The notes under the pieces were generated by a model, which was not told the DNA's origin, did no database searches, and saw only the letters and a list, made by a program, of their open reading frames with translations. Made by a program: the position numbers and the translations under genes. Below are positions 5,726-43,368 of a DNA stretch of 64,000 nucleotides, in pieces (within the stretch, counting starts at the first letter, position 1; each line of letters opens with the position of its first letter). The DNA is taken from NCBI GenBank assembly GCA_039195135.1, contig JBCCVP010000009.1, forward strand, positions 1,629 to 65,628, in the 5' to 3' direction. This stretch comes from Pseudomonadota bacterium. GTDB taxonomy: Bacteria; Pseudomonadota; Gammaproteobacteria; Xanthomonadales; SZUA-38.

Positions 5726-8700
5726 AGGCCTCAGGTCTGCTTCGAAAGCTCTGCGCCGCAGCGGCCGTTCTGGCGCTGCTGTGCGCTACGCCAGCGTTCG
5801 CCGCGCAGCCGGTGGACACGCTGAAGCGGAACCTCAAGTTCGTCAATCTGACGACGGAGGATGGCCTGTCCAGCGAGTTTGTCACCGCCGTCGCGCAGGA
5901 TGGTCAGGGCTACCTGTGGTTTGCTACCCAGTCCGGTCTCAATCGCTACGACGGTCATGAGATCCGCGTGTACGAACATCGACCGGATCAGCCCAACTCC
6001 ATCAGCGACAATTTTCTCCGGGCGCTGGTGGTCGACCACCAGGGGGAGCTCTGGGTGGGCACCGGGCGCGGGCTCAATCGCTACGACGCCAGCCGCGACT
6101 CTTTTGTGCAGCGGCCGTTTGATGGCCAGCTGGCGGATCTGCGAATCCGGGCGGTGACCCAGGATGACAACGGCCGTTTCTGGGTGGGCACGGTGGCGTC
6201 GGGGCTGTTCGCTATCGACCGTGATGGCAGCAATCTGCGGCACTATAGCCACGAGCCGGGCCGGCCCGACTCGCTGCCGTCGGATCAGGTGATCACCATG
6301 CTGGAAAGCCAGACCGGGGAGGTCTGGGTCGGCACCGACGGAGGGGGCCTCGCGCGCCTCGATCGCGAGCAGCAGTCCTTTACCGTGTACCGCCACCAGC
6401 CGGATGATCCAGCCAGCCTCGCCGGCGACGAAATCCGTTCGATGTTTGAAGATCGCGATGGTTTTATCTGGGTCGGCAGCGCGCAGGGCGGCCTAAGCCG
6501 CTACAACCCGGCAACGGATCGGTTTGACCGTTTTGCCCACAACGACGAGGACCCTCTGAGTCTGGGTACCGGCCAGGTTCCAGCCATCTTCGAAGATCGC
6601 GATGGCACCCTGTGGGTGGGTACGGAAGCGGGCCTTTCTGAGTGGCGGCCTGCCCGGTCCGGCTTTGTAACCTACCGGCGCGATCGAGGCGGTCGCTACA
6701 GCCTGGTGAATGATCGCGTCAACGCGATCAGTCAGGATGCTTCCGGCGTCCTTTGGGTAGCCACCCACGGGGGCGTCAGTGCGTGGAACTACGTGAGCGA
6801 CACGTTCTTTCAATACAACGCGGAGGGCGGCTTTGTCGCCTCCGACATCGTGACCTCCGTGGCTCAGTCCCAAGATGGCCACGTGTGGGTGGCCACCTAC
6901 GGCGGTGGACTGTCACGCATCAACATGAGCGACGGCGCGGTGCGCCAGTTCCGCCATCGGCCGGGTGATGCCACCAGCCTGGCCGATGACCGGGTGATGG
7001 CGGTGTACGTCGACCAGGCGGATCAGGTGTGGGCGGGCACGCGGGACGGTGGCTTGTGCCGACTTGTGGGTGAGGACAGCTTTTCCTGCTATCAGTATGA
7101 CCCGGCCGACAGCACGTCGCTGAGCGGCAATGCGGTCACCCGGGTTTACAGCGACAGCAACGGCGACCTCTGGGTGGGCGTGTTTGGCGGGGGCCTAAAT
7201 CAGCTTCGCTGGGAAGGCGACCAGGCCCAGTTTCGCCGGTTCCGCCACGACCCGGAAAACCCGGCAACGCTGAGCTCCGACCGGGTGCTCGCCATGGCCC
7301 ACGGCCCGGATGGCTACCTGTGGGTCGGCACCGAAAGCGGCGGCCTCAACCGGCTGGATCTCGAGACCGGGCGGGTGCTGCGTTTCGATATTGAACCCTA
7401 CGCCACCAACAGCGGCGTAGATCCGGTCAGCGGCAGCCCCTGGGAACTGTATTTTTCCGAGGACGGTGCGCTCTGGATCGGCACCATGAGCCAGGGCCTG
7501 CTGCGCTGGTCCGAGCGCGATCGCGCCGCCAACCGGGCCGAGTTTGAGCGCTTTGGCCTGAACGACGGACTGACGTCCGGCATCTACGGCATCGTACCGG
7601 GCGACGACGGCAAGCTGTGGCTGAGCAGTAGCCAGGGCCTGTTTGGTTTTGACCCAAAGCGCCGGACCGTGAGGAAATTTGATCGGAGCAACGGCCTGCG
7701 CAACAACGAATTCAACGTGGGGGCGCGACTGAAAACCCAGTCCGGTGAGCTGATTTTTGGGGGCACCGCAGGATTGGTGGCGTTTTCGCCCCAGGCCCTG
7801 CCGTTCAACGCGACGCCGCCGCCGATCGCCCTGTCCGCCCGCTCCCGCCGCGCGGTGCTGGCCCGCAATGGCGATGGCGGGACGCCGCAGGTCTCGATCA
7901 CCTATCACGACCCGTTTGTCGCCTTTGATTTTGTGGCGCTGGATTTTGTATCGCCGGACAAGAACGCCTACCGCTACCGGCTGGAGGGCTACGACAGCGA
8001 CTGGAATGATGCAACGCAAATGCGCACGGCGGTTTACTCCAACCTGCCCGCCGGCAGCTACACCTTCCGGGTGAACGCCTCCAACAGCAACGGCGTGTGG
8101 AATCAGGAGGGTGAAGCGATTGTGCTGACGGTCTCACCGGCTCCCTGGGCAACAAGCTGGGCCTTCTTCGGCTACGCGTTCGCCGCCGCAGCGTTGCTGC
8201 TGTGGGCGGTGCGCCGGCAGAAGCAGAAGCGGATGGCGGAGATTGAGCAGCGCGTGAAGCTCGAGCTCCTGGTGGCCGAGCGCACCAGCGAACTTGAAAC
8301 CCGCAATACTGAGCTGGAAGCGCTGAACCGGAAGATCGAGGACGCCAGCCTGACAGACCAGCTGACGGGCCTGCGCAATCGCCGCTTTATTCACCAGTTT
8401 ATTGACTCCGACCTGTCGACGATTGAGCGCAATCACTACCGGAGTCAGCAGGATCCGGAGGCTCGCATACCCGACCAGCTGCTGTTTGTGATCATGATCG
8501 ACCTGGATCGCTTCAAGCCGGTGAACGATCGTCTTGGGCATGACGCCGGGGACCTGGTGCTGCAGATGGTCTCAGACCGCCTCACGACCTGCTGCCGCGC
8601 CTCGGATACGCCGGTGCGCTGGGGCGGCGATGAGTTTCTCCTGGTGGGCTACACGGAGACCTTTGAAGGTATCGAGACGCTGGCGGAAAAGGTCCGCGTC

Positions 8701-36385: not shown

Positions 36386-38296
36386 CTACCGCGGCAGCGC
36401 CAATGCGATCAAAAAGTCACCCGGCATCTCCGTGCCTTCGCGGGAGCCTCCCGCGGCCACCACAACATATTGGCGGCCCTGGTGCCGGTAGCTCATCGGA
36501 GAGGCATGGATGCCGGCGGGCATTGGGATTTTGGCGACGGACGTACCGGTGGAAACATCCATAGCGACCAGTGAGCGGTCCCAGGATGACGCTGCGAATA
36601 CGAGATCGCCGGCGGTGATCAGCGGGCCGCCGGACAAAGTAGAGCCCCACTTCGATGCTTCCGCATGGTCCGCCAGCCAGGGGAAAGGCGGGGCGGCGCT
36701 TTCCCAGAGGCGCTTGCCGCCCTGAAGATCAATGGCGACCCAGGTGCCCCAGGGGCCCCGCAGGCAGGGCAACAAAAGATCGGGGTTAAAAAGGTTGAAC
36801 CGGTTCATGCCGTAGGGTGTGCCTGCCTGCGCGGTAAATTCCACGTCCTGGCTGCCACCCTCTTCATTCGCCTCGCGGCGGGCAAACTCATTCCTCGGCA
36901 CCAGCTGTACCACCGTCGGCAGGCGGTTGAGTGCCAGCACCGCAATCTGACGCTCCCGGTGGATGGCGACGCTGCCCCAGTTGGTACCTCCGGCATTTCC
37001 GGGATAAAGCACCGTACCTTCCAGGCTGGGGGGTGTGAACGGACCTTCATAGCGTCGGCCCTTGAGCAGCTTTTCGCAGTGCCGGCGGTGTTCGGGACTA
37101 TGATCCCAGAGCTTCATCGACTCGGGATGGAGCTTGAGGTCCGCAGACGGCATGGGTTGGCTGGGAGAGGAAACTTCGCCCGGCACCTGAGTCTTCGGCA
37201 CCGGGTGTTCCCGGACGGGGTAAACCGGCTCGCCGGTCGCGCGGTCGAAGCCGAAAAAGTAGCCCATTTTAGTCGCCTGGAGCACGACGGCGCGCTGTTG
37301 GCCGCTGCGTTGTACGTGCGCCAGCGCAGGCTGGGAGGCCAGATCATAGTCCCAGAGATCATGGTGCACGGTCTGAAAGTGCCAGGCCACCTGGCCCGTT
37401 TGCAGGTCCACCGCCACAAGCGAGTTGGCAAAGCGATTGTCACCCAGGCGCTCGCCGCCAAAAAAATCGGGTGCGGGACTGGTCGTGGGCAGGTAAGCAA
37501 GCTGTCGGGTTTCATCGACGGCGGCCATCGACCACACGTTGGCGGCGCCGGTGCGTCGGGCCTGCGTGAGGGTCCAGCGAGATGCCATGGGGTGATCGTC
37601 GGATTTGGGAATCGGGTCGAAGGCCCAGCGGAGCTCGCCGCTGCGGCCATCAAAAGCGCGAATTGTTCCTGGCTCCATTTCGACGCCGCCGTTGTCGCCG
37701 ATCGACGAGCCCACAATGACCAGCCCACCGGCAACCGTTGGCGGCGAGGTCAGTGCGTACTCTCCCCGGCGGAAATGGCGAATACCCGCCGACAGGTCAA
37801 CTTCTCCGTTTTTTCCAAACGCGCGGCAGCGCCGGCCGGTGGTCCCGTCGAGCGCGATGAGTCGCGCATCCAGCGTACCGAGATAGATGGTCACCGCGCA
37901 GGGTTTTCCGGCCGTCCCCCGGCCCGCCGCCACGCCCCGGGCGGTGAACAGCTCCGAGTAGCTGCGCCCGAAATCGACCTCGGGGTCGAAGCGCCAGATC
38001 AGGCGGCCCGTGTCGGGTTCCAGCGCGTACACCCGGTTGAAGCCGGAAACGACGTATAGGCGACCGTCGACATAGATCGGGGTCGCTTTAAACGAGCTTT
38101 TGCGGGAGTGGCTGCTGCCGTCTGCCGCATCGCCGGTACGAAATTGCCAGGCCTGCTGCAGCGAACCGGCGTTGGCTGTGGTGATCTGGGTATGGGGGGA
38201 ATAGCGATCGCCCGCCAGCGTGGCGCCGACGTGCTCCCAGCTGCGGTCCGGCGCCGCAGCTGCCGCCAGCGTCGCGATCATTAGAAGCGCTTTCAT
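36386..38296 (-). CDS. periplasmic PQQ-dependent dehydrogenase (quinoprotein beta-propeller)
   Basis: Signal peptide MKALLMIATLAAAAAP. Repeated W-motif propeller blades. Length of about 636 aa is typical of glucose/alcohol quinoprotein dehydrogenases. Confidence 0.8.
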   Translation of the reverse strand: MKALLMIATLAAAAAPDRSWEHVGATLAGDRYSPHTQITTANAGSLQQAWQFRTGDAADGSSHSRKSSFKATPIYVDGRLYVVSGFNRVYALEPDTGRLIWRFDPEVDFGRSYSELFTARGVAAGRGTAGKPCAVTIYLGTLDARLIALDGTTGRRCRAFGKNGEVDLSAGIRHFRRGEYALTSPPTVAGGLVIVGSSIGDNGGVEMEPGTIRAFDGRSGELRWAFDPIPKSDDHPMASRWTLTQARRTGAANVWSMAAVDETRQLAYLPTTSPAPDFFGGERLGDNRFANSLVAVDLQTGQVAWHFQTVHHDLWDYDLASQPALAHVQRSGQQRAVVLQATKMGYFFGFDRATGEPVYPVREHPVPKTQVPGEVSSPSQPMPSADLKLHPESMKLWDHSPEHRRHCEKLLKGRRYEGPFTPPSLEGTVLYPGNAGGTNWGSVAIHRERQIAVLALNRLPTVVQLVPRNEFARREANEEGGSQDVEFTAQAGTPYGMNRFNLFNPDLLLPCLRGPWGTWVAIDLQGGKRLWESAAPPFPWLADHAEASKWGSTLSGGPLITAGDLVFAASSWDRSLVAMDVSTGTSVAKIPMPAGIHASPMSYRHQGRQYVVVAAGGSREGTEMPGDFLIALALPR

Positions 38297-38448
38297 GGTC
38301 AATCCCCGTGTCGGTCGCCACCACCGTGCGGCCCCATCGCGCGGGAAACAAGCGTTTTGGGTTGAACGGCAGATTTTTGCCACAAGCGGCGGCCGTCGCG
38401 TTCGGGTGTCCGTTTCGGTGGTCGGGTTCAGGTTGATAGGCGCCGAGA

Positions 38449-39015
38449 TCAGTTGATCCGAAATCGACTCTCCTGACTTACCTGCGCCTTAAGGAATGCC
38501 ATCTGGTCGGCCAGAATGCGTCGATTCGACAGAATCAGTCCTTCCGCCACGTTCGGGACATACGGGATCGCGAGCAGCTTCATGCGCAGTTCGCTGAGCA
38601 GTCTGCTGCCTTTACGCTGATTGCAGGCGCGGCACGCTGTCACCACGTTTTCCCAACGATCTCGGCCGCCTCGAGCTACGGGAATCACGTGGTCCCGGGT
38701 GAGCCAGGCCGGCGGCAGCACCTCCCCGCAGTACAGACACATGTGCCGATCCCGCTGAAACAGGCGCGCGTTGGTCAATGCGGGTACATCCCGTTGTTTC
38801 CGCCCGTTCCGGTTCCGGAAACGGGTCGCGACAATCGTATTCAGGTCCAGCCGAGACCGCTTCCCGGTCGCCCGCGAAACGCCGCCGCGCAGGCACAAGG
38901 TCGCTGCGCCGGCCTCCCAGGCGACCCGGTCCAGGCAGTACAGCGTGGCGCACTGCTCCCGGGTCAGCCAGCCCAGCGGCAGGCCGGCAATATCCAGTTT
39001 TAAAATCCACACCAT
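38449..39015 (-). CDS. HNH endonuclease family protein (188 aa)
   Basis: CLYCG...LTRDHVIPVARGG...WENVVTACRACNQRKG. AAGGAG RBS at 39028-39023, 7 nt before the ATG. Confidence 0.85.
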   Translation of the reverse strand: MVWILKLDIAGLPLGWLTREQCATLYCLDRVAWEAGAATLCLRGGVSRATGKRSRLDLNTIVATRFRNRNGRKQRDVPALTNARLFQRDRHMCLYCGEVLPPAWLTRDHVIPVARGGRDRWENVVTACRACNQRKGSRLLSELRMKLLAIPYVPNVAEGLILSNRRILADQMAFLKAQVSQESRFRIN

Positions 39016-39020
39016 CGTTT

Positions 39021-39052
39021 TGCTCCTTGAGAATGTGGATGTGTGAAGGGCC
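39021..39052 (-). repeat. 3' arm of the long-range stem (inverted copy of the boxA/GU-rich leader segment); contains the HNH Shine-Dalgarno
   Basis: The plus strand TGCTCCTTGAGAATGTGGATGTGTGAAGGGCC compares with the reverse complement of 40805-40836. The core 16/16 match is at 39032-39047. About 27 of 32 positions can pair, counting one G-U. Confidence 0.7.
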
Positions 39053-39057
39053 TTGAT

Positions 39058-39135
39058 TGGTAGCCGCCCTCGGACTCGAACCGAGAATCGCCTGTTTCTG
39101 AAACAGGCAGGTATGCCAATTCCCGTCAGACGGCT
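39058..39135 (-). tRNA. tRNA-like gene, anticodon CAG (Leu) on a class I scaffold with a weak D-stem; CCA encoded
   Basis: T-arm CTCGG-TTCGAGT-CCGAG. Acceptor AGCCGTC/GGCGGCT with A73. Anticodon arm CCTGT-TTCAGAA-ACAGG. The variable loop is only 5 nt. The D-loop GAATTGG is Leu-like, but only 2 of 4 D-stem pairs form. Confidence 0.55.
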
Positions 39136-39142
39136 TTGTTTG

Positions 39143-39213
39143 AGACGCTGCCCGGATTCGAACCGGGATTTGAGGATTTGCAGTCCTCCGCCTTACCCTT
39201 CGGCCACAGCGTC
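39143..39213 (-). tRNA. tRNA-Cys (GCA)
   Basis: Clean cloverleaf. Anticodon loop CTGCAAA, U73 discriminator, G13-A22 mismatch as in other tRNA-Cys. CCA is not encoded. Confidence 0.85.
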
Positions 39214-39223
39214 GTTCCAAAAG

Positions 39224-39299
39224 TGGACCGCCTGGAGGGACTCGAACCCCCGGCCTGCCGGTTCGTAACCGGCTGCTCTTCCAGCTGAGCTACAGACGG
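39224..39299 (-). tRNA. tRNA-Arg (ACG)
   Basis: 76 nt canonical cloverleaf. Anticodon loop TTACGAA, A20 present, CCA encoded, unusual C1-G72. Confidence 0.85.
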
Positions 39300-39303
39300 T
39301 AGT

Positions 39304-39378
39304 TGGTTTGAACCATCGGACTCGAACCGATATCTCCAGGGTCACGACCTGACGCTTTACCCTTAAGCTAGGCTCAAC
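39304..39378 (-). tRNA. tRNA-His (GUG)-like with encoded G-1, A73 and C33
   Basis: All four stems form well. The anticodon loop TCGTGAC has C at position 33. G precedes U1. CCA is encoded. Confidence 0.65.
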
Positions 39379-39424
39379 ACCGTGGGAGCCCGAAGAGTTG
39401 TCAAATCCCTGGCTCCGAAAAAAT

Positions 39425-39502
39425 TGGTCTGAAGGGCTGGATTTGAACCAGCGACCCCTCGGTTCCAAACCGAGAACTCTGACCAGACTGAGCTACCTTC
39501 AG
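39425..39502 (-). tRNA. tRNA-Pro (UGG)
   Basis: Canonical cloverleaf with C1-G72 and A73. Anticodon loop TTTGGAA. CCA encoded. Confidence 0.88.
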
Positions 39503-39545
39503 CTTTCGCAGCGTCGGGGCTGTTTGCTCCCGCCGCTGCCCATGT

Positions 39546-39621
39546 TGGTAATCCGGACAGGATTCGAACCTGCAATCTCGAGGTTGAAGGCCTCGCGGCT
39601 TAACCATTCGCCTACCGGATC
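39546..39621 (-). tRNA. tRNA with anticodon UUC (Glu) on a non-Glu-like scaffold, C33
   Basis: Exactly 76 nt in canonical numbering. The anticodon loop CCTTCAA has C33. There is a G1-U72 wobble and A73. The body does not resemble gammaproteobacterial tRNA-Glu. Confidence 0.6.
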
Positions 39622-39628
39622 AAAAAAC

Positions 39629-39703
39629 TGGCGCTGCGGATCGGGCTTGAACCGACACCTGCTGGATCGACAATCCAGTGCTCTAACCTTGAGCTACCGC
39701 AGC
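39629..39703 (-). tRNA. tRNA-Asp (GUC)
   Basis: Canonical cloverleaf. Anticodon loop TTGTCGA, G73, CCA encoded. Confidence 0.88.
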
Positions 39704-40048
39704 GGATAGAACGGCTGAGACTAGGCCGTTGCCAATCACCCTTTGACGGGATTACCCAGCACCTGCCGGCGCCGGTTGCCCGCGTGTCCACGCTCAACCG
39801 GCGGGCGCCGGCTTGAACGTAGGCGATCATGACTGCCTTTTTTGGAGTGTGGCGACTCACTCATCGCGCGTGTCTAGTCAGCAGTTTGCGTACCGTGAGC
39901 CTCGCGGGCTCCAAATAGGGGCTACCCAACCGTGCGGCGCACCGCCAAAGCCTTCTCTGCTTGCGGCATCGAAGGCCACCGGATTGTCTTGCGACTCCGG
40001 CCTTAAGCCACTTTCGACACGAACTGAGGCGCGTCTTTGCGTTTGCTA
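39704..40048 (-). ncRNA. ORF-free, tRNA-punctuated spacer of about 345 nt; candidate structured RNA of unknown class
   Basis: No credible ORF on either strand. Many local GC-rich hairpins, for example AAGGCCGGA...TCCGGTGGCCTT and CGCCGGTTG...CAACCGGCG. It is bounded by a tRNA-like element and tRNA-Asp. Confidence 0.3.
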
Positions 40049-40118
40049 AAGCATGTGCCGGACTCGAACCGGCTATCTCGATCTTGAGTCGAACGCTCTC
40101 CCGTTGAGCTACATTGCA
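40049..40118 (-). pseudogene. degenerate tRNA-like element, anticodon CAA
   Basis: Good D-arm (TAGCTCAACGGGAGAGC), anticodon arm (TTCGA-CTCAAGA-TCGAG) and T-arm (GCCGG-TTCGAGT-CCGGC). The variable loop is only 3 nt, the acceptor stem has 5 bp plus a bulge, and there is no CCA. Confidence 0.45.
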
Positions 40119-40596
40119 TCCCACTGCGACGTGCACGCCTCAGTCGCTTCATAGCCTTTTGGGCCACAAAATACGACACGCCGAATGCCTTTCGCCTGCC
40201 GGCTACTGAGCCGAATGTTCGGGACGCCGGCTCCACACCAGAACCCCGGACCTCTGGGCTGACGCGCTCGCTCGCAAAGCTCGCACTTTTCGCCCTATCC
40301 GTTACCCCTCACGGTTGACGATGTTGGTTTCGCGGGGTGCACCACCACGTGGTCTTTCACTGACCTGCATTCCCGCCCCGCCGTGGCGGTTAGGTGCATC
40401 AATCAGCTACTTCCGCGCATCGCTTGGCCGCTATCTCTGCCGAAGCAAAGACGAGGAGGCCAGACTTGCCTGGACTGACCGAGCTGCTGCTCGGCGAAGC
40501 GCCATGGGGACACTCCTTTCCCGCCGTTACCGACGGTTATCGACGCCAGGCCGCCAAGGCCGATCCCGGCCAGGCCGGTAATCGGACATTCCTAAC
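40119..40596 (-). ncRNA. ORF-free, tRNA-punctuated spacer of about 480 nt; candidate structured RNA of unknown class
   Basis: It lies between tRNA-Asn and the tRNA-like element. Only Arg/Pro-rich shadow ORFs are present. It is GC-rich with many hairpins, for example GAGCCG-N14-CGGCTC. Confidence 0.3.
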
Positions 40597-40672
40597 TGGC
40601 TGGCACGGCAGGACTCGAACCTGCACCACCCCGCTTAACAGGCGGGTGCTCTACCGTTTGAGCTTCGTGCCA
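40597..40672 (-). tRNA. tRNA-Asn (GUU)
   Basis: 76 nt. Anticodon loop CTGTTAA, U1-A72, G73, CCA encoded, unusual A8. Confidence 0.8.
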
Positions 40673-40673
40673 G

Positions 40674-40749
40674 TGGTGGATCGGGTTGGCGTCGAACCAG
40701 CAACGCGCCGGACTTCACCCGGCCGCTCTACCACTTGAGCTACCGATCC
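40674..40749 (-). tRNA. tRNA-Phe (GAA)
   Basis: 76 nt. Anticodon loop GTGAAGT, A73, CCA encoded, one C-A mismatch in the T-stem. Confidence 0.75.
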
Positions 40750-40804
40750 AGAAAACTCGCCGGGACCTCCCGCGTCGGGCACAAAACCACGTCGACCGGG
40801 CACC

Positions 40805-40836
40805 GGCATTTCACACATCCACATTGTTAAAGAGCA
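40805..40836 (-). promoter_or_regulatory. boxA (TGCTCTTTAACAA, 40836-40824) plus a GU-rich boxC-like tract; 5' arm of the long-range stem
   Basis: The minus strand reads TGCTCTTTAACAATGTGGATGTGTGAAATGCC. The first 13 nt are identical to the E. coli rrn boxA consensus. Confidence 0.7.
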
Positions 40837-40839
40837 CAG

Positions 40840-40882
40840 CCAGGGCACAAAAAAGCCCTGGTCAGTTGGTACCTGCCAGGGC
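40840..40882 (-). promoter_or_regulatory. boxB-position hairpin overlapping an alternative terminator-like hairpin
   Basis: The minus strand reads GCCCTGG-N14-CCAGGGC-TTTTTTGT-GCCCTGG. The middle heptamer can pair with either flank. Confidence 0.55.
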
Positions 40883-41112
40883 TTCACTTGCGTTTTGTCC
40901 TGAAAGGTCCGGTTTCTCGAGCCTTCCAGAACAAATGTCTGGAGGCTTTACCGCATCGGCTCACCATGGCGAAGGCAAAATGCATTCGCGCGCCGGCCGC
41001 GGTCATTCACGGGGCGCAGGTCAAGCATCTGCGTCGCACACAAACGGGCAGCAGCGTCTTTGACGCGCGCCGGCGTTTGAGCAGCGGTACTGATTGAGTT
41101 AGAAAATTGCAT
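40883..41112 (-). other. transcribed leader (about 230 nt) between the predicted TSS and the boxB/boxA elements
   Basis: Position is inferred from the promoter at 41147-41120. There is no convincing ORF. Confidence 0.4.
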
Positions 41113-41119
41113 GCCGGGG

Positions 41120-41147
41120 AGTATACGCCGGAAGAACGCCGTGTCAA
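41120..41147 (-). promoter_or_regulatory. near-consensus sigma70 stable-RNA-type promoter
   Basis: TTGACA (41147-41142), a 16 bp spacer, TATACT (41125-41120), then the GC-rich discriminator CCCCGGC. Confidence 0.7.
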
Positions 41148-41150
41148 CAC

Positions 41151-41190
41151 GTGAAATGAATTAGTATTCATTCGAAATGAATTTATTTGA
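41151..41190 (-). promoter_or_regulatory. AT-rich UP-element-like tract containing AATGAAT / ATTCATT / AATGAAT heptamers
   Basis: About 75 percent AT in a GC-rich genome, immediately upstream of the -35. GAAATGAAT occurs at 41153-41161 and 41174-41182, with the inverted ATTCATT at 41166-41172. Confidence 0.5.
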
Positions 41191-41230
41191 GGCAAATGCG
41201 ACCGCAGCGCCCGGACTCCGGTTTGCTACC

Positions 41231-41776
41231 TCAGCTGTCCGCCGCAGGCAAAAGCGCGGCGGTAGGTTTTGTTGGCGTGAGGGTGACAGCGACGCGTTGC
41301 TGGCTCGGGCTGCGGCGGGCAGAAAACTCCAGCGCCTGTTCATCCGGCGCTGCGCCAAAGAGGTTAAACGAGAGCGTCATCTCGCCCTCGGGGTTGTTGA
41401 GGGCATACCGGCCCATCGCCACAAGCTGAGAGCTGGGTGCGCTGGACGTGTCATGGGCATGGGCCGGTGAAAGCAGCAGGCCTTCAAGTGCGCAGGCACC
41501 TCCCGCATCGGACAGCACCACTCGCTCGATGACGGCCGCGGCGATAGCGTGCTGATGGCGATGGAATTCTTCGGTGGAGAGGCGACCGTCCTGATCATCG
41601 TCCACGCCGGCAAACGCGCTAACGGGGATGGAGACGACCAGATAGGCCCCGTCGTCGACCACGTTCAGCGTGCCCCGCTGGGCGGCCATGGGATGAGCCG
41701 CTGCCCCGGTGCACACCAGCGACAGAAGTAGACCCGCAACCGGCGAGGCCAGGGTTGAAGTTCTGAACGACCGCAT
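41231..41776 (-). CDS. secreted His-rich protein with a single EF-hand-like Ca-binding loop
   Basis: The signal peptide ends AAA|HPM, which predicts an N-terminal His. The loop DDDQDGRLSTEEF fits the EF-hand consensus. HRHQH and HAHD clusters are present. The start overlaps the upstream stop (TGATG). Confidence 0.6.
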   Translation of the reverse strand: MRSFRTSTLASPVAGLLLSLVCTGAAAHPMAAQRGTLNVVDDGAYLVVSIPVSAFAGVDDDQDGRLSTEEFHRHQHAIAAAVIERVVLSDAGGACALEGLLLSPAHAHDTSSAPSSQLVAMGRYALNNPEGEMTLSFNLFGAAPDEQALEFSARRSPSQQRVAVTLTPTKPTAALLPAADS

Positions 41777-43368
41777 CACAGCTCACCTTTGACGCAGCGC
41801 TGAAAGTAGGGGTAGGTGTCGGTCGCATAGTAGTGGTAGATGCCGCCCGGGAACTCTGGGGTCACACCCTCCCGGCCGTTGCACTCGTCCAGGTCGCCTG
41901 AGCCTTCGACGTATTCGAAGTCCTGGACAAACGTGCCAAGCGGGTAGAGATCGGTCGAAGGCCTGGCGCTGCTCACATTGGCTACGTGCTGATAGCTGCC
42001 CGTCATCGCCTTCAGCCCGGAGGAAGCGTCGTCCGCCACCACGTAGCCGTAGCGGGCGTAGATGGGAAAGCCATCCGCGGCCCAGCCGATCAGCGTCATG
42101 GCGGACTCGCTGCCGCCGCGCTTGGCGACAAATCCCTCCGGCATGCCGTGGTAGTGGTACTGGCCGTCGGGCTGCACGTGGGCGTTGTTCTGATCGGTGC
42201 CGAAGTCAAACGAATCCTGACCCAGGGCTTCGATCTGCCAGCTGCCGACCATGCCGTTCAGGGTGCAGTTGTCGCCAGAGTCGTTGCAGGTGCCGCCGGT
42301 GCCCGCGTCGATTTTGACTCCGTTGAGCACGAAGCCGATGGTGCCGCGGGGGCCGCCAAGTTCGGTAACGGCATCTGTCTTGACCGGTTCAAGGGTCATG
42401 TTTGCTGTCACGTTCTGCTCGGAAATTGTGCTGGGGTTACCGGCGTTGGGGAAGGTGCCCACTTCGTGGTCCGGAATGCCGTTCGCCGTGAGAGCGCGTG
42501 TGCCGCTGCTGCAGTCCCACTCCGACGTGCTGGTGATCGTGAGGGACGGCTGGTTGTTTGCGGTGGTGTCTGCGTAGCTGCAGAAAATACCCAGCGTGCT
42601 GTTGCTGACACTGGTGACCGCGGCAAGTCCAAAAGGCATGTCGTCGAGCCGCAGGGCGACAACCTGCAGGGCGTCGGCGCTGCTGTAACCAGCGTAGAAA
42701 CGCTGTGACTCCGGGAGAATAAGAGGGAGCAGGTCTTCGCTGGCGTTGTTGAGCGTCAGCATCACGTCGCCTTCGAGCAGCTCAATGGCGCCCACCGCAG
42801 CGCCGCTGACGAGGTTGGTGACCGCCGCCGTGCCGTTGCCTGCCGACTCGTGGATGCGCACAAGCTCGCTGGTCTGGGCATCACCGTCGACGTAGGTGAG
42901 CAGCCACTGGCCCGCCAGCTGGTCCACGACGTCGAGCCAGCCAAACTCAATCCGCTGGATGGGTATCGTTTCGCCCTCCCAGCTGAGGTTAGCGCTGCGG
43001 TGGTCAGTAAAGACGATGCTCAGCGGGCCCTGGGAAGACTCGGCGGTAAAGGGCTCGCTGTAGTCGCAGCCCAGGCACTGGCCGCTGCTGCTTTCGAACA
43101 CCGAACCGTCGAACTGGCCGATTTCCGTACCCGATGTGGCCGGCGAATACTGACCACTGGCGGACAGCCAGGCCGTGGAGCCGTCGGCGGCGTAGTGCAT
43201 GGACACCACGTACATCGTTTCGCCCTGGCGCTCAATCAGGTAACCACGGCCGGAGGCGGATGGGTCCCACCACCAGCCGTCTTCCGGATACGTGGACTGA
43301 GCAAAAGCGTTGATCGAACCTAGCAGGCCGAAGGTCAGGCCAATAGCGAACGTTCGGGCGGTCTTCAT
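41776..43368 (-). CDS. secreted YHYH domain protein
   Basis: Signal peptide MKTARTFAIGLTFGLLGSINAFA. The C-terminal half contains the GQYHYHGMPEGF motif typical of the YHYH family. Confidence 0.75.
   Translation of the reverse strand: MKTARTFAIGLTFGLLGSINAFAQSTYPEDGWWWDPSASGRGYLIERQGETMYVVSMHYAADGSTAWLSASGQYSPATSGTEIGQFDGSVFESSSGQCLGCDYSEPFTAESSQGPLSIVFTDHRSANLSWEGETIPIQRIEFGWLDVVDQLAGQWLLTYVDGDAQTSELVRIHESAGNGTAAVTNLVSGAAVGAIELLEGDVMLTLNNASEDLLPLILPESQRFYAGYSSADALQVVALRLDDMPFGLAAVTSVSNSTLGIFCSYADTTANNQPSLTITSTSEWDCSSGTRALTANGIPDHEVGTFPNAGNPSTISEQNVTANMTLEPVKTDAVTELGGPRGTIGFVLNGVKIDAGTGGTCNDSGDNCTLNGMVGSWQIEALGQDSFDFGTDQNNAHVQPDGQYHYHGMPEGFVAKRGGSESAMTLIGWAADGFPIYARYGYVVADDASSGLKAMTGSYQHVANVSSARPSTDLYPLGTFVQDFEYVEGSGDLDECNGREGVTPEFPGGIYHYYATDTYPYFQRCVKGEL

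Follow-up and report, generated by a model that had tools for sequence, protein, structure and literature searches.

A boxA-led tRNA array with a GOLLD RNA and an HNH gene: a probable horizontally transferred cassette of environmental Gammaproteobacteria

Introduction

What is a dense run of tRNA genes doing on a gammaproteobacterial chromosome when several of its members depart from rules that nearly all tRNAs obey? The question is raised by a 64,000-nt stretch of contig JBCCVP010000009.1, referred to here as the window, for which an original prediction described a ten-member tRNA array with four aberrant members and likened it to horizontally acquired arrays, as opposed to housekeeping tRNA operons. 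L-arrays, defined as having 20 or more tRNA genes with 2 or more of them per kb (Tran et al., PMC4758250), are known to spread horizontally and to be induced by translational stress in Anabaena (PMC8421152). With nine tRNAs, or ten with an embedded element, in 1.69 kb, the array of the window reaches that density and stays below that count.

We find that the array is one portion of a larger unit. The segment 38449-41147, on the minus strand, is probably a single, self-contained and horizontally transferred cassette, and belongs to a family of environmental Gammaproteobacteria for which we coin the name "boxA-led tRNA arrays". The combination of a tRNA array, a GOLLD RNA and an HNH gene is an already known kind of element, and mycobacterial tRNA clusters contain GOLLD, HNH and a pseudo-tRNA inside GOLLD (PMC6582537). 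What sets the present variant apart is its control parts, which are of the type found in rRNA (rrn) operons, with their boxA, boxC and leader-trailer helix (PMC10250234).

Results

All features described below lie on the minus strand. Read 5' to 3', the cassette opens with a σ70-type promoter, a leaderless short ORF, a hairpin with an intrinsic terminator, an rrn-type boxA and the leader strand of a helix. These are followed by tRNA-Phe, tRNA-Asn and a GOLLD RNA with an embedded tRNA-like module, then by the tRNAs for Asp, Glu, Pro, His, Arg and Cys and a short-arm Leu, and finally by the trailer strand of the helix and an HNH gene. The idea of a horizontally acquired, non-housekeeping array is borne out by the ordinary chromosomal flanks and by collinear relatives in unrelated contexts, but it had overlooked the GOLLD RNA, the HNH gene, the rrn-like promoter/boxA leader and the bracketing helix, and it is these parts that define the nature of the locus.

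Genomes of environmental Gammaproteobacteria, and metagenomes, contain related cassettes at non-syntenic sites; these keep the gene order and have as many as 29 tRNAs. Collinear arrays with an HNH homologue of 55-66% identity after them were found in MAGs of Thiotrichales, Chromatiales, Ca. Foliamicus and others, and such arrays are present at 38 further metagenome loci. No flanking genes common to different loci were found, and no 16S motif occurs downstream of the boxA leader in any locus. Because a conserved cassette recurs in non-syntenic contexts, it appears to have spread by horizontal transfer across several gammaproteobacterial orders. The window copy is a reduced one, carrying 9 tRNAs as compared with 20-29 in its collinear relatives.

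ARAGORN confirmed nine of the predicted tRNAs, each at its predicted coordinates and on the minus strand; all the sequence features described for the ten-member array are present, but the tenth member lies inside the GOLLD RNA. Upstream of GOLLD are tRNA-Phe (GAA; 40674..40749; Rfam 45.0 bits) and tRNA-Asn (GUU; 40597..40672), both with an encoded CCA. Downstream are tRNA-Asp (GUC; 39629..39703), tRNA-Glu (UUC; 39546..39621), tRNA-Pro (UGG; 39425..39502), tRNA-His (GUG; 39304..39378, called by ARAGORN as 39304-39377), tRNA-Arg (ACG; 39224..39299), tRNA-Cys (GCA; 39142..39213) and a short-arm, type I-like tRNA with the Leu anticodon CAG, A73 and CCA (39058..39135; 33.1 bits, a low score). With the Rfam tRNA model run over the whole window, the tRNA scores are well beyond chance (E 1e-12 to 3e-4). 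Sequence reading upheld the prediction that eight of ten members encode CCA (the exceptions being tRNA-Cys and the embedded element), as well as the oddities C1-G72 in tRNA-Arg and A8 in tRNA-Asn. In the family as a whole, CCA is encoded in 403 of 429 tRNAs; the C1 of tRNA-Arg recurs in the Arg-ACG of two relatives (L129 and L130), and position 8 of tRNA-Asn is U in 32 cases and G in 5, A8 being private to the window copy.

The 893-nt gap between tRNA-Asp and tRNA-Asn is filled by a GOLLD RNA of ~880 nt with 5' and 3' domains (39712..40596; Rfam RF02032 and nhmmer), flanked by tRNA-Asn upstream and by tRNA-Asp, which starts 9 nt past its 3' end. RF02032 matches 39712-40186 over the full model (positions 1-416) with 133.7 bits (E = 1.9e-36), below the Rfam gathering threshold of 150. 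Sister copies at the same array position score 126, 139.7, 144 and 153.5 bits, three of the four being sub-threshold, and this GOLLD subfamily thus straddles the Rfam threshold. A profile of the window GOLLD and four relatives, spanning 39713-40589 in the window (nhmmer), retrieved six more full-length homologues (e.g., L331 and L228); the homology covers all 885 nt, and 318 columns are invariant among 10 copies.

The member of the array that had been described as an aberrant tRNA with the Leu anticodon CAA (40049..40118; Rfam tRNA 37.3 bits at 40050-40117) is located within the GOLLD linker, where tRNAs are known to occur (PMC12286853). Its reported features are real: the D and T arms are intact, the loop reads CUCAAGA, the variable loop has 3 nt, the acceptor stem is shortened, bulged and mismatched, and there is no CCA. 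It is not called by ARAGORN. As an independent tRNA gene it was rejected, since it occupies a slot that is homologous in 10 GOLLDs, in which the D and T arms are conserved and the anticodons drift (CCA, CGC, CCU, UAG, CAA and others); it is a domain of GOLLD. The module is positioned at -402 nt from the GOLLD 3' end, in agreement with -419 and -416 nt in two viral GOLLDs (L122 and L067, respectively).

These two viral RNAs, both with an embedded tRNA, are the closest GOLLDs outside the family, as would be expected if the locus were a prophage or phage-derived island, whose tRNAs would support translation of the phage or, by changes in the anticodon loop, escape the anticodon nucleases of the host. 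GOLLD genes are as a rule found in phages or prophages, close to tRNA islands, and the RNA has been solved as a 14-mer nanocage (Kretsch et al. 2025, PMC12286853); its 3' motif was found in at least 120 viral contigs, and in 27 viral loci GOLLD is immediately followed by a tRNA. Yet the neighbours of the cassette in the window are ordinary chromosomal genes with no phage genes among them, and no phage structural, replication or integrase genes occur within ~15 kb on either side. In 50,697 phage records, nucleotide matches were confined to single tRNAs. The leader pattern was matched by 15 viral contigs, all of them devoid of tRNAs, the viral relatives of the HNH protein were without arrays, and the control elements resemble those of host rrn operons. 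A phage origin is therefore quite unlikely, and a chromosomal cassette remains the reading that we prefer.

Two further members had been judged aberrant chiefly on account of position 33. U33, expected of a canonical elongator tRNA, is found in the other seven window tRNAs and is replaced by C33 both in tRNA-His (loop UCGUGAC), which also has an encoded G-1 and A73, and in tRNA-Glu (C32-C33, loop CCUUCAA). The observations hold, but the substitution is neither a defect peculiar to this array nor idiosyncratic: C33 occurs in 11 of 23 family tRNA-His, on five different anticodon stems, and in 4 of 16 family tRNA-Glu, with the loop and stem of the window tRNA-Glu identical in L295 and L322. Across 429 unique family tRNAs, position 33 is U in 403, C in 23, G in 2 and A in 1, and all 38 non-array tRNAs from the same set of genome loci have U33. 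By these comparisons, C33 in tRNA-His and tRNA-Glu is an inherited family trait that is kept with compensatory stem changes, not random damage.

Anticodon-loop mutations in phage tRNAs have been proposed to evade nucleases (van den Berg et al. 2023, PMC10264068), and C33 is present in 5 of 349 tRNAs adjoining viral GOLLDs, both of which fit a phage-derived island. The array tRNAs resemble these phage tRNAs in being accessory and in having loops off the host norm; unlike them, they are not phage-borne, and their recurrent change is that at position 33, concentrated in His and Glu. The array tRNAs have no known cognate nuclease, and C33 would give no protection from colicin E5, which accepts any pyrimidine at this position (PMC1635277) and would still cut a C33 substrate.

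For the short-arm tRNA with the Leu anticodon CAG, the 5-nt variable region noted earlier and a non-standard D arm were confirmed, but they again represent no idiosyncratic defect. This tRNA belongs to a family of 21 short Leu members with the anticodons UAG, CAA, UAA, CAG and GAG, and has, in addition to its 5-nt variable region, a 6-bp anticodon stem and a D region, CUGANGGGAAUUGGCAUACCU, that is invariant in the family. Covariation in the family is strong: pairing amounts to 98.6%, with double changes in 16 of 21 pairs, and none of 500 shuffles reached the observed values. A73, U8, the A14-equivalent position and G18G19 are likewise invariant, consistent with the identity elements of LeuRS (PMC6614811). 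The alignment indicates that the short-arm Leu tRNA is an inherited, constrained family trait with compensatory changes, and the host LeuRS probably charges it. Leucylation of a short-arm tRNA by a gammaproteobacterial LeuRS is nonetheless uncertain, because the E. coli enzyme is reported to charge type II tRNALeu only; a type I tRNALeu of Streptomyces is leucylated (PMC6614811). That tRNA, the type I tRNALeu(CAA) of Streptomyces coelicolor, is similarly a bacterial tRNA with a Leu anticodon and a short variable loop, occurring beside a single LeuRS. Here, by contrast, a whole putative isoacceptor family resides on a mobile array and combines the invariant Leu-like D region and A73 with a 3-nt connector and the 6-bp anticodon stem.

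By alignment, only A73 in tRNA-His (C73 in 20 of 20 family tRNA-His), A8 in tRNA-Asn and the shortened embedded tRNA are private to the window copy. Counted together with the tRNA-Cys that lacks CCA and with the disappearance of over half the ancestral tRNAs, these lesions (the A73 being opposite G-1) could represent partial decay. Taken further, the locus might be seen as a decaying, non-functional remnant of a larger acquired array, with its aberrant members being pseudogenes that gain mutations; the low tRNA number and the private defects point in this direction, as do truncated GOLLD remnants in two relatives (L227 and L235), the often poor transcription of L-arrays (PMC8421152) and the pseudo-tRNA inside mycobacterial GOLLD, for which expression was undetected (PMC6582537). 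However, the C33 of tRNA-His and tRNA-Glu and the short Leu are common to many relatives, with compensatory changes, and the window copy has retained, in intact form, its promoter, short ORF, terminator and boxA, the two arms of the helix, a GOLLD of full length and the HNH ORF. A near-identical counterpart of this copy (99.85% over 655 nt) was found in an independent sequencing run. We thus regard a non-functional remnant as unlikely, and continue with the cassette as an intact, if reduced, unit.

The promoter (41120..41147; 11/12 in a promoter scan) consists of TTGACA (41147-41142), a 16-nt spacer and TATACT (41125-41120), with A/T-rich sequence just upstream and a GC-rich discriminator downstream. 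An alignment of 8 genome/window loci shows this -35/-10 pair in each, and it was found in 37 of the 42 leaders with enough 5' sequence. Only 7 nt past the -10 element lies the ATG of a conserved short ORF of 54 codons plus TAA (40948..41112; C-terminus ...GEPMR), which is therefore probably leaderless. Conservation of the frame supports this ORF, since all 36 unique leaders have one of 39-59 codons, with a stop (TAA, TAG or TGA) 104-118 nt before boxA in 36/36 as compared with 0/36 in the other two frames; it is predicted to be translated.

Between this ORF and boxA, the alignment of leaders (44 sequences, 43 scored) and MFE folds revealed a hairpin region (40900..40947) with three segments: AGCCUCCAG (40947-40939), which abuts the stop codon, CUGGAAGGCU (40929-40920) and ACCUUUCAG (40908-40900). 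The second segment can pair with either the first or the third, with canonical pairing of 80% and 86%, respectively, and covarying positions; MFE folds prefer the hairpin formed with the third. Further downstream, an intrinsic terminator-like hairpin (40849..40882), GCCCUGG...CCAGGGC followed by U6, is conserved in all family leaders (pairing 86%; alignment and MFE fold) and is predicted by MFE to form by default, and beyond it the motif GCCCUGG (within 40840-40848) is complementary to the 3' arm of the hairpin. No pairing that would disrupt the terminator was found: an antiterminator between the third segment and the terminator pairs in only 48% of cells, and MFE folds retain the terminator whether or not the first segment is free. 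The region, in which a conserved ORF precedes a conserved terminator and the two alternative pairings are supported, is a candidate ribosome-dependent transcription attenuator. Rfam also gives a weak His_leader match of 23.5 bits at 40847-40975.

The boxA-like element UGCUCUUUAACAA (40824..40836) matches the E. coli rrn boxA at 13/13 positions, and 14 nt of the window are identical to the rrn boxA-spacer sequence CACugcucuuuaacaauuua (PMC2724277 Table 1). It is present in 7/7 genome loci with an intact array 5' end that were retrieved via the HNH protein, independently of boxA; these seven are the only independent test, because the metagenome loci were retrieved with a boxA-containing pattern and its ubiquity among them is circular. 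As judged from these alignments, sequence conservation across loci extends to the promoter, the short ORF, the terminator and the boxA element.

Directly past boxA runs the GU-rich, boxC-like leader strand of the helix, AAUGUGGAUGUGUGAA (40810..40825), which forms an exact 16-nt inverted repeat with the trailer strand UUCACACAUCCACAUU (39032..39047). The extended repeat measures 41 nt with 78% complementarity, and the pairing continues as far as the Shine-Dalgarno sequence (AAGGAG, 39028-39023) and the start codon of the HNH endonuclease gene, the last of the cassette (38449..39015; 188 aa; Pfam HNH_5 5.2e-17 and HNH 2.9e-13; PHROG HNH families). In 10 unique loci, with arms 0.9-4.9 kb apart and arm sequences that vary between loci, the helix comprises 220 Watson-Crick pairs, 13 G·U and 1 A·C. 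Covariation of this kind indicates that the ends of the array form an RNA helix on the sense strand.

An inverted repeat that brackets exactly the non-coding cargo, adjoins a nuclease gene and turns up in non-syntenic places might alternatively mark the DNA termini of a transposable element mobilised by HNH, in which case "boxA" would merely be part of the repeat and no RNA helix would exist. But on the sense strand nearly every difference between the arms is G·U-compatible, an asymmetry (13 G·U to 1 A·C) that pairing between RNA strands would produce and DNA repeats would not. Conservation along with the repeats extends to the promoter, short ORF and HNH gene, even though these are located beyond them, no target-site duplication was seen, and the boxA part is identical to the rrn boxA. 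We find such an element very improbable and retain the interpretation of an RNA helix enclosing the array.

Discussion

If the control parts act as they do in rRNA operons, Nus factors would attach to boxA and enable RNA polymerase to traverse the array, which is long, untranslated and highly structured. The leader-trailer helix would join the ends of the primary transcript for processing, and it may in addition mask the ribosome-binding site of the HNH gene. The short ORF and the terminator could hold expression largely in check for as long as translation proceeds undisturbed. The product would be a supernumerary, partly non-canonical set of tRNAs together with GOLLD, which may back up or protect translation when host tRNAs are depleted or attacked; we infer a conditional backup tRNA supply as the function.

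Such conditional behaviour has a counterpart in the trn operon of Anabaena (Santamaría-Gómez et al. 2021, PMC8421152), which likewise comprises supernumerary tRNAs in a polycistronic unit (here predicted), spreads horizontally, and is silent by default and induced by stress, in agreement with the terminator-guarded leader found here. The Anabaena operon belongs to another lineage and has a different gene order, whereas GOLLD and HNH are present here; and while it is repressed and linked to the TrcR repressor (PMC10272220), control of the present cassette appears to be cis-acting, through the short ORF, terminator and boxA.

In gene content, the arrays of Mycobacterium (Behra et al. 2019, PMC6582537; Morgado & Vicente 2018, PMC5966550) are similar, being dense, horizontally transferred clusters with tRNAs on both sides of GOLLD, a (pseudo-)tRNA inside GOLLD and an HNH gene in the cluster. 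The present host, however, is a gammaproteobacterium and not an actinobacterium, the window copy has only 9 tRNAs, and the HNH gene is always last, right after the trailer strand of the helix. The rrn-type boxA, the leader-trailer helix and the leaderless short ORF with its terminator also distinguish the cassette; in the literature searched, we found no report of these elements on tRNA arrays.

The GOLLD RNA itself shares with RF02032 (Weinberg et al. 2009; Kretsch et al. 2025, PMC12286853) the full-length model match, the flanking tRNAs, the tRNA in the linker, and a conserved 3' domain next to a 5' domain that varies more. It differs in its sub-threshold score, in being chromosomal without a surrounding prophage, and in its predicted place as an internal unit of a boxA-led operon.

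The closest parallel to the control region is the leader of rRNA operons (boxB-boxA-boxC and 16S helix; PMC10250234, PMC2724277). The two have an identical boxA sequence, a strong promoter with a GC-rich discriminator, and a GU-rich strand past boxA that pairs with a trailer beyond the cargo, with Watson-Crick/wobble covariation. They differ in that the cargo here is tRNAs and GOLLD rather than rRNA, and in that a predicted translated leader ORF and an intrinsic terminator precede boxA. In addition, boxA abuts the helix strand in the present cassette, whereas in Enterobacteriaceae it lies 18-19 nt upstream of boxC.

A chromosomal tRNA array with aberrant members

The nine tRNA genes called by ARAGORN lie on the minus strand, in the region (39058-40749) where the original prediction had described a ten-member array with four aberrant members, and each was found at its predicted position. 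Eight of the nine were matched by the Rfam tRNA model at 45-68 bits, and the Leu-CAG gene (39058-39135) scored 33.1 bits with this model in E-value mode; the tenth element, a tRNA-like "Leu-CAA" module (40050-40117), scored 37.3 bits with mismatched acceptor pairs. Reading of the minus strand together with the cmscan alignments bore out the predicted oddities: the loop of tRNA-His(GUG) (39304-39378) is UCGUGAC, with C33, and this tRNA carries G-1 and A73; tRNA-Glu(UUC) (39546-39621) has the loop CCUUCAA, again with C33; and 5 nt separate the anticodon and T stems of Leu-CAG. In "Leu-CAA" the variable loop is 3 nt long, the acceptor stem is bulged and CCA is lacking; C1-G72 and A8 are present in Arg and Asn, respectively, and CCA is encoded in 8/10 elements. 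Shifting the His and Glu anticodon loops by hand so as to regain U33 proved impossible.

The array had also been likened to horizontally acquired ones, a reading that is correct but incomplete; the locus is a member of a known association of tRNA array, GOLLD RNA and HNH gene. GOLLD, an HNH gene and a pseudo-tRNA within GOLLD have been found in mycobacterial tRNA clusters (PMC6582537). Comparison of the sequences of ~45 loci points to four features: an rrn-style boxA with a bracketing helix, a conserved leaderless short ORF followed by a terminator, a family of type I Leu isoacceptors, and frequent C33 in His and Glu. None of the four was reported in the literature that we searched.

Spread and order of the arrays

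An HNH endonuclease gene (188 aa) lies directly 3' of the last tRNA. Its closest relatives (55-66% identity) among the >440 retrieved by a protein search of one genome per species came from MAGs of Thiotrichales, Chromatiales, Ca. Foliamicus, Ca. Porifericomitaceae and unclassified Gammaproteobacteria, each directly 3' of a large tRNA array. A 1.5-kb Logan contig from a public run, also matched by the HNH protein, contained the same array as the window at 99.85% identity. The gene order in the window, Phe-Asn-[GOLLD]-Asp-Glu-Pro-His-Arg(ACG)-Cys-Leu-HNH, is collinear with that of relatives such as locus L140, Thr-Tyr-Phe-Asn-Ala-[~950 nt with one tRNA]-Asp-Glu-Ile-Pro-Gly-His-Ser-Arg-Lys-Val-Arg(ACG)-Gln-Trp-Cys-Arg-Leu-Leu-Leu-HNH, which indicates that the window copy is a reduced derivative. 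At 6389-7418 of another relative, L141, ARAGORN called a 90-nt "Cys" with the loop AGGCAGG, after which comes a tRNA-free gap of ~940 nt that gave no match to GOLLD (by nhmmer) or to any Rfam family; the corresponding stretch in its close relative L138 is only ~320 nt.

The genes of the window include σ54-dependent activators, KatG, PaaN, CreD, a PQQ dehydrogenase, c-di-GMP enzymes, and LysR and ECF-sigma regulators. With the exception of the HNH gene, the surroundings of the array are free of phage, integrase and transposase genes, and BLAST of positions 38000-42000 against GenBank phages returned single-tRNA matches only. The flanking genes differ between loci, with none in common, arguing that the mobile unit is the cassette itself (38449-41147, minus strand), which runs from the promoter to the HNH gene.

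Non-canonical tRNAs across the family

Position 33 was examined in 429 unique tRNAs of the family, that is, of boxA-led arrays in environmental Gammaproteobacteria: U occurs in 403, C in 23, G in 2 and A in 1. C33 is found mostly in tRNA-His (11/23) and tRNA-Glu (4/16), and occasionally in Asn, Pro, Ile and Thr, with U33 present in all 38 stand-alone tRNAs of other genome loci. His-C33 occurs on five distinct anticodon stems, and close relatives differ solely by U or C at this position; the loop and stem of the window's tRNA-Glu are identical to those of two relatives (L295 and L322). This family-wide pattern argues against a lesion of the window copy, and the compared sequences indicate that C33 is a tolerated or selected state in the lineage. 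Two other oddities, A73 in His (C73 in 20/20 relatives) and A8 in Asn, are unique to the window and may impair identity or folding.

Two selective explanations for C33 were considered. Escape from colicin E5 was rejected as the cause in tRNA-His, as the published specificity of this toxin accepts either pyrimidine at position 33. The tRNA-guanine transglycosylase TGT requires U33-G34-U35, so that C33 might serve to avoid queuosine; a general avoidance is unlikely, given that the frequent C33 of His contrasts with few or no cases in Asn (2/31), Asp and Tyr.

Leu-CAG is one of 21 distinct short tRNAs that form a family, have the anticodons UAG, CAA, UAA, CAG and GAG, and share an invariant D region, CUGANGGGAAUUGGCAUACCU, resembling that of bacterial tRNALeu, an invariant A73 and a sixth anticodon-stem pair. 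In their cloverleaf 98.6% of cells pair, and both sides have changed in 16/21 pairs, values that none of 500 shuffles and no slid register came near. Long-arm Leu tRNAs are still present in some arrays, and Ser and Tyr tRNAs of the same arrays are mostly long-armed, the exceptions being two short Ser-anticodon tRNAs. A second, 78-nt kind of Leu-anticodon tRNA, in L239 (Leu-taa and Leu-tag), L322 and L337 (Leu-tag), is unrelated to the CUGANGGGAAUUGG family, its D arm, GUAGCCCAA..GG.AGAGGC, being of the ordinary class I type; from these sequences, loss or replacement of the long arm of Leu tRNAs seems to have happened at least twice. Among bacteria type I tRNALeu is rare, although Streptomyces coelicolor has one that is charged by its LeuRS, whereas E. 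coli LeuRS charges type II tRNALeu only (PMC6614811). Leucylation of the short Leu tRNA of the cassette is therefore plausible but uncertain.

GOLLD RNA within the array

Positions 39712-40186 match GOLLD RNA (RF02032) over all 416 model positions in Rfam's E-value mode (133.7 bits, E = 1.9e-36), a score that falls under the curated threshold of 150 bits. GOLLD occupies the same array slot in L128, L131, L133 and L140 (126-153.5 bits). A nucleotide profile of this region and four relatives delimited the whole Asn-Asp interval (39713-40589) as a single conserved RNA of ~880-885 nt, with 318 invariant columns across ten GOLLD copies. Truncated remnants, covering profile positions ~118-530 only, lie inside the otherwise intact arrays of L227 (1268-1622) and L235 (1385-1745), indicating that GOLLD is partly deletable from the cassette. 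A terminator-like hairpin with a T-run, antisense to GOLLD (39821-39838, plus strand), is the sole such site in 38300-41400 and probably reflects chance, such sites being fewer than in shuffled sequence.

GOLLD forms a 14-mer cage and is found near tRNA islands, with a linker that sometimes contains tRNAs (PMC12286853). The "Leu-CAA" element (40049-40118) falls within the unstructured linker of the model. Across the ten copies the D and T arms of this embedded slot are kept while the anticodon loop drifts (CCA, CCA, CGC, CCU, UAG, CAA and several irregular loops), which suggests that the slot is maintained for shape or processing, not for decoding. The window's module also lacks CCA and part of both acceptor strands.

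An rRNA-type boxA and a bracketing helix

The tRNAs are preceded by UGCUCUUUAACAA, the boxA of E. coli rrn operons; the rrn boxA-spacer is given as CACugcucuuuaacaauuua (PMC2724277, Table 1). BoxA occurred in 7/7 genome loci found through the HNH protein, an independent observation because these loci were not retrieved by boxA; a further 38 metagenome loci were retrieved by a boxA-containing pattern, so that in them independent evidence comes solely from features other than boxA. A reading of the leader as one captured from an rrn operon, with a 16S gene on its 3' side, was ruled out, as the 16S 5' motif follows boxA in no locus. None of 15 viral contigs matching the leader pattern carried tRNAs.

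Directly past boxA, a 16-nt stretch (40825-40810) has its exact complement at 39047-39032, in the spacer that separates the last tRNA from the start of the HNH gene; the extended inverted repeat (41 nt, 78% complementarity) is the longest in the region. Such leader-trailer arms are present in every relative with both ends, 0.9-4.9 kb apart and with sequences that vary by locus. Scripted counting in ten unique loci gave 220 Watson-Crick pairs, 13 G·U and a single A·C, with 11 further mismatches, most of them at helix ends. Transitions on the sense strand thus keep G·U rather than give A·C in a ratio of 13 to 1, an asymmetry expected from selection on an RNA helix of the transcript and not from DNA terminal repeats. 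The arrangement matches that of rRNA operons, in which boxC lies within the 5' strand of a helix between leader and trailer, and boxA is believed to keep the boxC strand at the exit of the polymerase until the trailer, too, has emerged (PMC10250234). The pairing in its extended form spans, in the window, the Shine-Dalgarno sequence and start codon of the HNH gene, so that we infer that helix formation could limit HNH translation; two relatives have a terminator past the trailer arm in place of the HNH gene.

Architecture of the leader

The leader layout is identical upstream of the first tRNA in every array with its 5' end present. The family promoter consists of TTGACA, 16/17 nt, and TATACT or TATAGT, followed by a GC-rich stretch (11/12 matches in the window, 41147-41120). 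An ATG 7-10 nt past the -10 element opens an ORF of 39-59 codons, poorly conserved except for a C-terminal G-(E/A)-(P/A)-M-(T/R), and its stops, for which all three triplets are used, abut or overlap the segment (A)GCCUUCC (40947-40939 in the window). A second segment, GGAAGGCU (40929-40920 in the window), can pair with either the first or a third, CCUUCCAG (in the window, 40908-40900), past which come a GC-rich hairpin with six to nine U and then boxA. The ORF is supported by a frame control: its first in-frame stop lies 104-118 nt upstream of boxA in 36/36 unique leaders, and the other two frames never end there.

The terminator forms in the MFE folds of all six leaders examined. A classical antiterminator between the third segment and the terminator was unsupported (48% pairing, with the MFE folds also against it), and neither leader pairing scores nor MFE folds yielded any antiterminator pairing. 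A weak Rfam His_leader match (40847-40975, minus strand; 23.5 bits, E = 0.69) lies exactly on the conserved hairpin and terminator part and probably reflects attenuator-like architecture, not homology. In L233, whose promoter was not recognised, a long perfect hairpin, formed by GGGGUCUCUUGUUGGAGCUUCCC and the pre-terminator spacer, takes the place of the short ORF region. The 3' part of the window's leader ORF (40956-40988) is 73% complementary over 33 nt to a GOLLD segment (40182-40214) just upstream of the Rfam model start. The energy of this duplex is above shuffled controls in the window, but relatives are not above such controls and the best-pairing position is unconserved, and the pairing was rejected.

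A model for cassette expression

Sequence comparison provides the parts of the cassette, their conservation, an RNA-level constraint on its helix and tRNAs, and its horizontal spread. In the model that we propose, the promoter would drive a single long untranslated transcript, on which boxA would recruit NusB/NusE and the rrn antitermination complex, allowing polymerase to cross ~1.8-5 kb of RNA that is structured and bears no ribosomes. The helix between leader and trailer would bring the ends together for RNase III-type processing, and the tRNAs and GOLLD would be freed by RNase P and 3' processing enzymes. The short ORF and terminator, acting like an attenuator, might hold the operon off by default; this is a weak step of the model, because an antiterminator pairing was not found. 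A default-off leader agrees with the L-arrays of Anabaena, which are silent and are induced by translational stress (PMC8421152).

We hypothesize that the cassette provides a back-up supply of tRNAs, part of which would escape enzymes directed at tRNA and which may act with GOLLD. A more inclusive reading, which we regard as rather unlikely, is that of a mobile "mini-rrn" operon that uses the host's Nus antitermination and helix logic to make GOLLD nanocage RNA and deliberately non-canonical tRNAs (type I Leu, and C33 His and Glu resisting a tRNA-targeting nuclease or modification enzyme), switched on when the short ORF and terminator sense impaired translation. If so, GOLLD would have a role in chromosomal translational rescue or against toxins, not a purely phage one.

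GOLLD is among the largest bacterial RNAs of unknown function, and here it appears as a constant component inside a chromosomal operon of the rrn style, whose defined promoter, leader and ends offer a tractable genetic context for it outside phages. In addition, two tRNA rules that hold almost universally are put to a natural test in the family: U33 (C33 replaces it in about half of tRNA-His) and the long variable arm of Leu (lost from Leu isoacceptors of the family, but kept in Ser and Tyr). If charged and used, its tRNAs would show how far decoding tRNAs may depart from these rules, and perhaps also the reason, such as evasion of toxins or modification enzymes that target tRNA. CRISPR arrays are a second class with Nus-dependent antitermination, after rRNA operons. 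If boxA and the helix work here as in rRNA operons, Nus antitermination and end-pairing would reach a third class of non-coding operon.

HNH genes and GOLLD RNAs in other settings

The array is absent around distant HNH homologues (~50% identity), mostly from Lysobacteraceae and Burkholderiales, in whose array-free chromosomes homologues of ~50-53% identity (L142-L206) are common; the HNH gene may have a chromosomal ancestry, or these chromosomes may once have had arrays. Near HNH relatives on viral contigs (36-51% identity), tRNAs or GOLLD were not found. On the viral contig L004, a distant HNH homologue lies between two HEARO RNAs (RF02033; 1282-1513 and 5127-5355, 49.7 and 101.2 bits), a different HNH-RNA association that is unrelated to the array. 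The commonest neighbour by far of viral GOLLDs (loci L007-L126) is tRNA-Met(CAU), with 55 of 361 tRNAs. At one such locus (L008) C32-C33 is present in two Val tRNAs, and a further tRNA has the anticodon CUA; at another (L102) a UUA-anticodon tRNA has G33.
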